Sequence record: NC_028847.1
Source of the DNA: Escherichia phage QL01
DNA length: 64,000 bases
Strand: one strand, 5' to 3'
The translations under genes were made by a program, and so were the position numbers. How positions within the stretch are numbered: position 1 is the stretch's first letter; each line of letters opens with the position of its first letter. Positions 35,948-37,014 of this stretch are shown here, in pieces. The notes under the pieces are model-generated. The model was not told where the DNA came from and made no database searches. It worked only from the letters and a program-made list of their open reading frames with translations.

Positions 35948-36412
35948 TTATTTGATTTGTTTAGCAGACCAGATACGGTCTTTGATGATTTTCTGAATAT
36001 CTTCAACATACTCTAAGTCGTGAGCATGTGGATTATCTTTGAAGCTATGTGCTCGTGCCAGTTTCTGGCCTTCTGTTTTGATTACTAAAAGCTCTTTAAG
36101 AATTGCTTCATACTTAGAAATAATTCCTTTGGCGATATTTTTTTCTTGAGCGGCTTTAGGGTCCGCTTTTGACGCAGGTGCTTTACCTGTAGCTTTCTGG
36201 AACAATTCACCTGAGGCAGCTAGGCTTTTAAAAACTCGGCTAACAGTATTGGCATTAGTAAAACCTTCGGCTTTAAAATCTTTAATAAAACGGAAACGTT
36301 CTTCATCAGAGGCGTCTTTGTAAGAATATTTACCTGCTTGAATTGCTGCAATCGCAGCGGCTTTTACATCTGAACTAGATTGTTCAGTCAAAAATTCATT
36401 GTAAGTTTTCAT
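35948..36412 (-). CDS. internal protein with capsid-targeting sequence
   Basis: Begins MKTYNEFLTEQS; 154 aa, Lys/Ala-rich. Confidence 0.65.
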   Translation of the reverse strand: MKTYNEFLTEQSSSDVKAAAIAAIQAGKYSYKDASDEERFRFIKDFKAEGFTNANTVSRVFKSLAASGELFQKATGKAPASKADPKAAQEKNIAKGIISKYEAILKELLVIKTEGQKLARAHSFKDNPHAHDLEYVEDIQKIIKDRIWSAKQIK

Positions 36413-36438: not shown

Positions 36439-36446
36439 TATTTATA
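36439..36446 (-). promoter_or_regulatory. late promoter TATAAATA upstream of internal-protein gene
   Basis: Plus-strand tatttata 36439-36446, ~27 nt upstream of ATG 36412. Confidence 0.5.
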
Positions 36447-36447
36447 C

Positions 36448-36478
36448 AAAAAAAGCCCAACCTTTCGGAAGGGCCTTT
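36448..36478 (-). terminator. intrinsic terminator closing the tRNA/ncRNA transcription unit
   Basis: Plus-strand aaaaaaagcccaacctttcggaagggcct; near-duplicate of hairpin at 35316-35345; U7 on minus transcript. Confidence 0.55.
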
Positions 36479-36857
36479 AACCTAGGGTAACCTTGTCGGG
36501 GTTCCACCTGCTAGGCAAGTGTTTGTACGAAACGCCGGGATTCGAACCCGGTTATTAAGTAGTTGACGCCACTCAATATTTTTAAAAGGCCATATCTCGA
36601 CCATATCCGAACGTTCCGTCAAAAACGCTACTCGGCTTACGGCAAAGATATTTCCTCGAATCGATAATTCGGTGCGCCGTTTCTGCTGTGATGTAAGGGG
36701 ACGTTAACAGATCGTAAAGATTTGTTAATGCCAGTCCTTACTCAGGGAACATCAGTCCGACGACTTACCGGTAGCGACCCGGTTTCTTGTTTGTTGCGCC
36801 GGTGAATGCTGGTAATCAGTCTTCATACGACGGCTTGACTATATAATAGTCTTCATT
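36479..36857 (-). ncRNA. structured non-coding region downstream of tRNA-Arg; contains tRNA-like T-arm CCGGG-TTCGAAT-CCCGG (36535-36551); possible counterpart of T4 small stable RNAs
   Basis: No ORF on minus strand; multiple stem-loops (e.g. GACTAT-TAT-ATAGTC); T-arm consensus without a complete cloverleaf. Confidence 0.35.
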
Positions 36858-36932
36858 TGGTATCCCGCCCTGGGATCGAACCAGGACCGCAAACTTAGAA
36901 GGATCGTATGCTATCCATTACACCAGCGGGAC
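36858..36932 (-). tRNA. tRNA-Arg (anticodon TCT), CCA encoded
   Basis: Minus strand GTCCCGC...anticodon loop CTTCTAA...T-arm CCTGG-TTCGATC-CCAGG...GCGGGAT-A-CCA; 7-bp acceptor stem with one G-U. Confidence 0.8.
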
Positions 36933-36937
36933 GTAGT

Positions 36938-37014
36938 TGGTGACCCAGACCAGATTTGAACTGGTAACCTTTCCCTTATGAGGGGACTGCTGCTAACCAT
37001 TGAGCTACAGGGCC
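36938..37014 (-). tRNA. tRNA with CAT anticodon (Met or lysidine-type Ile), CCA encoded
   Basis: Minus strand GGCCCTG TAGCTCAATGG...anticodon loop CTCATAA...T-arm ACCAG-TTCAAAT-CTGGT...CTGGGTC-A-CCA; one U-U mismatch in acceptor stem. Confidence 0.7.

Follow-up and report, generated by a model that had tools for sequence, protein, structure and literature searches.

The genome of Escherichia phage QL01 carries, between its tRNA genes and a terminator, a stretch of about 380 nt in which no protein-coding gene is apparent, and the locus raises the question of what this stretch encodes. We analyzed a window of 64,000 nt of this genome (NC_028847.1), to which all positions given below refer; the genes of the locus all lie on its minus strand. 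A first-pass annotation, made from the sequence alone, had described two tRNA genes followed at positions 36479-36857 by a structured non-coding stretch with an isolated tRNA-like T-arm, and had offered two explanations: small stable RNAs like those of the T4 tRNA region, or a decayed tRNA. The stretch, which is free of substantial open reading frames (ORFs), is very probably the 3′ half of the phage tRNA operon and carries the orthologues of the T4 genes rnaD and rnaC.

Orthologues of T4 rnaD and rnaC in the tRNA operon

In the T4T record, two misc_RNA genes follow tRNA-Arg: rnaD (“species 2 RNA”, 119 nt, L001:2364-2482) and rnaC (“species 1 RNA”, 139 nt). The window aligns to both. Its rnaC copy is identical to T4 at 137 of 139 bases (nhmmer E = 6e-39), and the core of its rnaD at 106 of 121 (E = 6e-25). 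For rnaC, the homology to T4 species 1 RNA extends over the full length, and the gene takes the same-strand place in the tRNA operon downstream of rnaD and the tRNA; rnaD, homologous to T4 species 2 RNA, lies between tRNA-Arg and rnaC as it does in T4. The complete order at the locus is tRNA-Ile, tRNA-Arg, rnaD, a 6-nt spacer, rnaC, a trailer of ~47 nt and the terminator, and it is that of T4. The two genes are thus orthologous to their T4 namesakes, syntenic with them and conserved in secondary structure, which bears out the first of the two earlier explanations.

Other early descriptions of the stretch also held. ORFs within 36479-36857 have only TTG starts, are at most 46 amino acids long and are not conserved among relatives. 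A 421-nt fold of the ORF-free stretch has a z-score of -4.95, and none of 100 shuffled sequences folded as well, which makes it more structured than chance. The T-arm motif CCGGG-TTCGAAT-CCCGG lies precisely where it had been placed.

Over a 701-base query around the locus, the window has 100% identity to Escherichia phage WG01 (KU878968; Straboviridae, Tevenvirinae, Dhakavirus). Matches to this query occur in more than 1000 T4-like phage records, and roughly 800 phage records contain the locus. The WG01 record lists only coding sequences (CDSs) at the locus, and the RNA genes are unannotated. The rnaD-rnaC pair itself is an already known feature: the stable RNAs of T4 have been known since the 1970s, and their presence in a T4-like phage will not surprise a specialist. 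What the analysis adds is a covariation-supported model of RNA C and, with it, a correction of the reading of its T-arm as an “orphan”. In T4, RNA C and RNA D are late RNAs according to RNA-seq, with Northern blot validation using an RNA C probe (PMC9697503), and their function is still described as unknown in reviews and recent papers (PMC3014915, PMC9697503, PMC12685909). In rnaD, all lines of a T4-like phage that adapted to host ECOR34 acquired one convergent single-nucleotide polymorphism (PMC12685909), which makes a host-related role of this RNA possible.

A tRNA-like structure model for RNA C

Homologues of rnaC were gathered from a phage collection, IMG/VR and metagenomes and aligned with MAFFT. 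The resulting alignment, A3, contains 21 distinct sequences from Tequatro-, Dhaka-, Mosig-, Gapriver-, Karam-, Kanagawa-, Winkler-, Teguna- and Marfavirus as well as metagenomic contigs, with identities to the rnaC of the window from 98.6% down to 54%. A pattern scan of metagenomes returned three real rnaC variants and one false positive from a coding region. Later, a covariance model contributed further members from Gelderlandvirus, Kosakonia phage 305 and Citrobacter phage Ursula.

Over the whole structure listed in Table 1, standard pairs occupy 89.9% of the cells in A3, versus 38-47% if the partners are slid by 1-3 columns. Changes on both sides were found for 28 pairs, and none of 500 column shuffles reached the observed values. 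RNAalifold, to which no structure was supplied, returned the same helices with 38 pairs, 24 of them showing compensatory change, and the minimum-energy fold of the window sequence alone again gives these helices (-49.9 kcal/mol, z = -4.25). The linker between the long arm and the second hairpin is variable and ends in a conserved A-tract. Compared to T4 rnaC, which has the same length and is likewise the last gene of the tRNA operon ahead of the terminator, the window copy carries two substitutions, both within helices: one in the long arm's internal loop region (column 70) and the other in the second hairpin, where A-U becomes G.U (column 101).

The T-arm had been described as lacking an acceptor stem. 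This description does not hold: the eight bases right after the T-stem (36527-36534) pair with the first eight bases of the RNA (36657-36664), a partner that lies ~125 nt upstream, as indicated by compensatory changes and by the single-sequence minimum-energy fold. The pair at columns 7/141, for example, is A-U in the seven T4-like sequences and G-C in the other 14. RNA C therefore combines an acceptor stem with a directly adjoining 5-bp T-stem and 7-nt T-loop (UUCGAAU), as in a tRNA, and this arrangement is maintained by compensatory changes. In the T4T record, the annotated rnaC of T4 begins at the first base of the acceptor stem and ends one base beyond the last pair. Midway along this stem, two adjacent U.U mismatches (columns 8-9/139-140; 36659-36660 with 36530-36531) are kept in 20 of the 21 sequences; in the exception, Yersinia phage TG1, both are replaced, by U-A and C-G. 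This strict conservation suggests a recognition element. The stem is followed by A-CAA, of which CAA is invariant in all 21 sequences, and CCA is not encoded.

The long arm and the second hairpin of RNA C end in the hexaloops UUGACG and CGUCAA, each the exact reverse complement of the other. In every one of the 21 sequences the six loop-loop pairs are standard, and the only substitutions in either loop are matched double changes: UUGGCG/CGCCAA in the group of Klebsiella phage MY02 (A-U to G-C) and UUGAUG/CAUCAA in TG1 (C-G to U-A). The calculated duplex energies are -5.5 kcal/mol for UUGACG/CGUCAA and -7.6 and -4.1 kcal/mol for the two other matched pairs, compared to -0.4 kcal/mol for one mismatched combination. 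Because the hexaloops are complementary and co-vary twice, we propose that they form a 6-bp kissing-loop contact; the evidence from the alignment indicates such a contact and is good but thin. An earlier idea reached by eye, a pairing of UUGACG with the 3′ tail GUACAA, was dropped given the exact complementarity and co-variation with the CGUCAA loop. In the kissing complexes HIV TAR-TAR* and ColE1 RNA I/RNA II, hairpin loops of 6-7 nt are fully paired. The 6-nt loops of RNA C would likewise pair through all their bases; here, however, both loops reside in one RNA, and their contact would close a tRNA-like four-way junction.

The resemblance to tRNA extends to further features. The long second hairpin, one nucleotide before the T-arm, stands at the place of the variable arm in class II tRNAs, the spacing of rnaC within tRNA arrays is tRNA-like, and genuine tRNAs match the rnaC covariance model weakly (E about 1e-5 to 1), presumably via the acceptor stem and T-arm. 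In contrast to a tRNA, RNA C has neither a D-arm nor an anticodon arm, is 139 nt long, keeps two conserved U.U mismatches and has CAA instead of CCA. Transfer-messenger RNA (tmRNA, SsrA), which is processed by RNase P, offers a second comparison: as in tmRNA, the ends of RNA C form an acceptor stem stacked on a T-arm, and a large insertion replaces the rest of the tRNA. But RNA C, at about 140 nt versus about 360 nt, lacks the G3.U70 pair (its 3:70 pair is A-U or G-C), a resume codon, a tag reading frame, the tmRNA pseudoknots and an encoded ACCA, and neither ARAGORN nor Rfam reports a tmRNA match. For the rnaC structure we found no description in the searchable literature and no Rfam family, and the model, with its acceptor stem formed by the 5′ and 3′ ends and its co-varying complementary hexaloops, may be previously undescribed.

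The covariance model R1, built from A3, finds a single copy in the window (36523-36667, 161 bits). The sequences collected show that rnaC is a family of its own, found among the tRNA genes of enterobacterial T4-like phages from at least ten genera. Without rnaD, it occurs inside the tRNA array of Karam-, Winkler-, Teguna- and Gelderlandvirus and of Citrobacter phage Ursula, and where it lies between two tRNAs, it is only a few bases away from each neighbor, like another tRNA gene. Conversely, rnaD is kept and rnaC absent in VR5 and CLB_P2 (both Dhakavirus, like WG01), TH40 and pEC-M719. The absence is a clean one in VR5 (L025) and CLB_P2 (L026), in which the 3′ end of rnaD (GGCGCACC GAAC) joins the trailer ACACUUGCC at about locus position 1120. 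A bacterial origin was considered and discarded: a scan of GTDB genomes with a loose sequence pattern matched two contigs from unrelated high-GC bacteria, and the rnaC model has no match in either.

In other records, the two genes appear under different names. The rnaC homologue of Enterobacter phage PG7 (NC_023561; L004:1254-1348) is annotated as a 95-nt tRNA-Met, and many T4-like records have one to three “hypothetical protein” CDSs across the rnaC/rnaD region. These entries look like mis-annotations of the two RNA genes.

The neighboring elements of the operon

Table 1. Features of the tRNA operon and of RNA C, in 5′ to 3′ order on the minus strand (positions in the 64,000-nt window).
Feature	Position	Strand	Evidence or remarks
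tRNA, CAT anticodon, encoded CCA	36938-37014	minus	ARAGORN; Rfam RF00005, 53.9 bits; T4 alignment
tRNA-Arg (UCU; TCT anticodon), encoded CCA	36858-36932	minus	ARAGORN; Rfam, 48.8 bits; T4 alignment
66-nt spacer, tRNA-Arg to rnaD core, WG01 lineage only	36792-36857	minus	alignments; not in T4
rnaD orthologue (T4 species 2 RNA), conserved core	36671-36791	minus	T4 alignment, nhmmer, RNAalifold
rnaD 5′ hairpin ACCGG-GUCGCUA-CCGGU	36767-36783	minus	
6-nt spacer GAAUUA, rnaD 3′ end to rnaC 5′ end	36665-36670	minus	alignment to annotated T4 RNA ends
rnaC orthologue (T4 species 1 RNA), 139 nt, tRNA-like	36526-36664	minus	T4 identity; covariance model; covariation; folds
rnaC acceptor stem	36657-36664 with 36527-36534	minus	A3 columns 4-11/137-144, compensatory changes
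rnaC long irregular arm	36582-36656 (A3 columns 12-83)	minus	hexaloop UUGACG as cap
rnaC hexaloop 1, UUGACG	36617-36622	minus	covariation in A3
rnaC A-rich linker	36579-36581 and adjoining bases	minus	
rnaC second hairpin, 10 bp, hexaloop CGUCAA	36553-36578	minus	one base ahead of T-arm
rnaC hexaloop 2, CGUCAA, exact reverse complement of hexaloop 1	36563-36568	minus	covariation in A3
rnaC T-arm, 5-bp stem, 7-nt loop UUCGAAU	36535-36551	minus	A3 columns 120-124/132-136
rnaC discriminator-like A	36526	minus	
Conserved 3′ trailer, 47 nt	36479-36525	minus	T4 conservation; fold
Intrinsic terminator	36448-36478	minus	stem GGCCCUUCC / GGUUGGGCU, two U.U mismatches, GAAA tetraloop, U7 at 36448-36454

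ARAGORN and Rfam at gathering thresholds agree that the 64 kb contain exactly two tRNAs, which lie on the minus strand with the positions and encoded CCA ends that had been read before; the contrast drawn with eight tRNAs in T4 is borne out at the homologous T4 locus. The 74-nt body of the tRNA with the CAT anticodon is identical to T4 tRNA-Ile (L001:1503-1576; anticodon CAU), so named in the T4T record, and tRNA-Arg is identical to its T4 counterpart across the aligned length. For the CAT tRNA, the 3′ CCA is encoded in the window and not in T4 (GGGUCACCA versus GGGUCAUA). The homing endonuclease gene segB, which lies between tRNA-Ile and tRNA-Arg in T4, is absent from the window, and the two tRNA genes are 5 nt apart.

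The rnaD core begins at AGAAACCGGG and has the 5′ hairpin and basal stem of T4 RNA D. The closing pair of the hairpin ACCGG/CCGGU can be A-U, G.U or G-C. A long stem-loop combines an invariant base (GUCGUCG / CGGCG-C-AC) with a variable tip that occurs in at least three unrelated versions, depending on the phage group. Five of the 22 pairs predicted by RNAalifold have changed on both sides. RNA D is not tRNA-like. On the plus strand, our scan flagged as terminator-like the 5′ hairpin in reverse complement (36767-36783) with TTTCTTGTTT after it; this signal is probably incidental.

The window differs from T4 in 66 extra nucleotides between tRNA-Arg and the rnaD core, so that its RNA D could measure anything from about 121 to 187 nt, depending on where the 5′ end lies. 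The core follows directly after tRNA-Arg in T4, VR5 and AV113, and an ORF separates the two in RB69, HY03, L017 and others. Local alignments of the 66-nt spacer with the 3′ ends of the ORF of RB69, HY03 and L017 gave z-scores of about 3, and equally high scores came from 3-10 of 500 shuffles; tentatively, the spacer may be a remnant of the 3′ end of this small ORF. It could form the 5′ leader of an rnaD precursor, and its fold has an energy of -16.4 kcal/mol (z = -3.2). A near-repeat of AUGAAGACU occurs in it at 36847-36855 and 36818-36826.

The trailer downstream of rnaC consists of the hairpin CACUUGC-CUA-GCAGGUG, a single-stranded GAACCCCGACAAGG and a small hairpin ACC-CUA-GGU, which reads GCC-GNRA-GGC in T4 and Cronus. 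It persists in VR5 and CLB_P2 despite the missing rnaC, and 36 nt of it are 91.7% identical in the distant Erwinia phage Cronus. In Cronus (NC_055743; L008:1150-1500), an ORF-free spacer of ~400 nt between two tRNA-Met genes opens with the trailer element of the window (CACUUGC-CUA-GCAGGUG...CGACAAGG) and ends in a T-arm-like GGGUUCGAGUCCC followed by GCGAGGGG, which is able to pair with an upstream CCCCUC. The rnaC model and the Rfam families have no match in this spacer, which may be another unannotated structured RNA.

The terminator that had been called strong is present as a GC-rich hairpin directly followed by a run of seven U residues; the hairpin (36455-36475) has a fold energy of -13.8 kcal/mol compared to -20.3 kcal/mol for the perfect hairpin of T4. 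It was missed by a simple consensus scan because of the two U.U mismatches in its stem. Directly after the U run, the minus strand carries at 36439-36446 the T4 late-promoter consensus TATAAATA; the next ORF (35948-36412) has its ATG about 27 nt farther downstream. In the whole window this motif occurs nine times versus 7.2 expected, which is not above chance.

Maturation, possible role and alternative readings

Judging from the anatomy of the locus and from T4 tRNA maturation, the two tRNAs, rnaD and rnaC would be co-transcribed up to the hairpin and U7 of the terminator. RNase P would cut 5′ of each tRNA and also 5′ of rnaC, at the 3′ border of the GAAUUA spacer, the presumed site by analogy to T4. 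Cleavage at rnaC is expected because of its tRNA-like “top half”, in which an acceptor stem of 7-8 bp stacks on the canonical T-arm, and would at the same time free the 3′ side of rnaD. The dimeric precursor of the T4 species 2 and 1 RNAs is a substrate of RNase P. The 3′ trailer would presumably be removed during maturation, so that the RNA ends in the discriminator-like A and the conserved CAA. The long irregular arm and the 10-bp hairpin would take the place of the D and anticodon arms in mature RNA C, and the kissing hexaloops would close the molecule into a compact, nuclease-resistant shape, which probably explains its stability.

Several points weigh against this interpretation. RNA detection and stable accumulation of RNA C (~140 nt) are reported for T4 only, and the RNase P dependence of species 1 RNA, too, comes from the T4 literature of the 1970s-80s. 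The acceptor stem retains its two U.U mismatches, with no encoded CCA after it, and its 3′ strand has an alternative internal partner at columns 49-56, with which it is also 85% paired. The kissing loop is backed by just two independent compensatory events and could be intermolecular, leading to dimerization, rather than formed within one molecule. Finally, the clean absence of rnaC from the close relatives VR5 and CLB_P2 implies that it is dispensable in at least some hosts.

As to its role, we speculate as a best guess that RNA C, by mimicking a tRNA's acceptor/T half, engages a tRNA-binding factor of the host or the phage; in our opinion, it is neither a decoder nor a base-pairing regulator. 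A more specific version would see RNA C as a dedicated “top half” mimic, locked by an intramolecular kissing loop, that occupies in trans a host factor recognizing tRNA acceptor ends. This factor could be EF-Tu, an enzyme of processing or CCA addition, or an anti-phage toxin acting on tRNA 3′ ends by modification or cleavage. In this specific form we regard the proposal as decidedly unlikely.

Alternatively, RNA C and RNA D could be structured spacers that act in cis only, by guiding the processing of the operon and shielding the tRNAs from 3′ exonucleases, and have no function in trans. We think this explanation unlikely. In its favor, both RNAs lie inside the tRNA operon, rnaC was lost without replacement in VR5 and CLB_P2, and T4 deletion mutants without the region are viable. 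But the invariant complementary hexaloops, the A-tract linker and the ~100 nt of helices that covary and are kept in at least ten genera would be superfluous in a pure spacer. Moreover, rnaC is found in the middle of the array and not at its 3′ end in Karamvirus and Gelderlandvirus, and rnaD and rnaC are kept where most or all tRNAs have been lost, as in the window and in HY03. No trans target is given in the literature (PMC3014915, PMC9697503, PMC12685909), in keeping with a cis-only role, while the persistence of RNA C and RNA D until late in T4 infection is unlike that of degraded spacers (PMC9697503).

Very unlikely is the idea of a third tRNA, decayed or unusual, in the 3′ part of the stretch; it would be ~93 nt long, class II or Sec-like, with an acceptor stem formed by ACGGAACG (36612-36619) and CGUUUCGU (36527-36534). 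This idea can draw on a weak Rfam tRNA-Sec match, the best one in the stretch, which uses exactly this stem (16.6 bits, E = 2.3), on the PG7 homologue, which ARAGORN calls as the tRNA-Met given in its annotation, and on the 85% pairing of the stem across A3. The score is, however, far under the Rfam gathering threshold of 47 bits. Within 36479-36857 there is no ARAGORN call of a canonical cloverleaf and no RF00005 match even at E up to 10; Rfam, at gathering thresholds and at E up to 10, gives only the two tRNAs and noise, with no known family for the stretch. The complete third tRNA against which the first-pass annotation had cautioned is thus not found, nor does ARAGORN call one here in T4 or the other relatives that were scanned whole.

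The proposed stem itself was rejected as a conserved fold. None of its pairs has changed on both sides, two of its positions are unpaired in 12 and 8 of the 21 sequences, and it breaks in TG1. It is incompatible with better-supported helices, namely hairpin P4 (five compensatory pairs) and the acceptor stem at the 5′ end, as well as with the kissing loop, and the T4T record places the start of T4 RNA C 45 nt farther upstream. We consider it a by-product of shared CGU/ACG motifs. The triplet between CCUU and AAAA was dismissed as an anticodon: it varies among phages without any pattern (UUA, CAU, CUA, UGA, ACA, AUA), its segment is 3-5 nt long, and no anticodon stem flanks it. The earlier suggestion of decay also conflicts with the compensatory substitutions that, in many genera, maintain the acceptor stem, the T-arm, the two extra arms and the pairing between the loops.

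That the stretch encodes one or more small proteins has next to no chance: a 46-amino-acid TTG ORF at 36482-36622 and the hypothetical proteins listed by numerous related records under the matching region speak for it, but all starts are TTG, the ORFs differ between T4 and the window and are absent in PG7, the substitutions between genera are compensatory in RNA helices and not synonymous, and RNA C and RNA D were detected as RNAs during T4 infection (PMC9697503).

With rnaD and rnaC recognized as RNA genes, the locus can be read correctly in hundreds of T4-like genomes, where it is left blank, filled with a “hypothetical protein” or, in PG7, labeled tRNA-Met, and really encodes RNAs D and C. 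The family of rnaC could become an entry in Rfam. The structure model provides testable handles on RNA C: an acceptor/T minihelix with two U.U mismatches, the complementary hexaloops and the A-tract linker. RNA C and RNA D rank among the oldest non-coding RNAs known from phages, with a function still unassigned, and the mimicry of a tRNA acceptor/T half, if true, would provide a function for a phage RNA that has been without one for 50 years.

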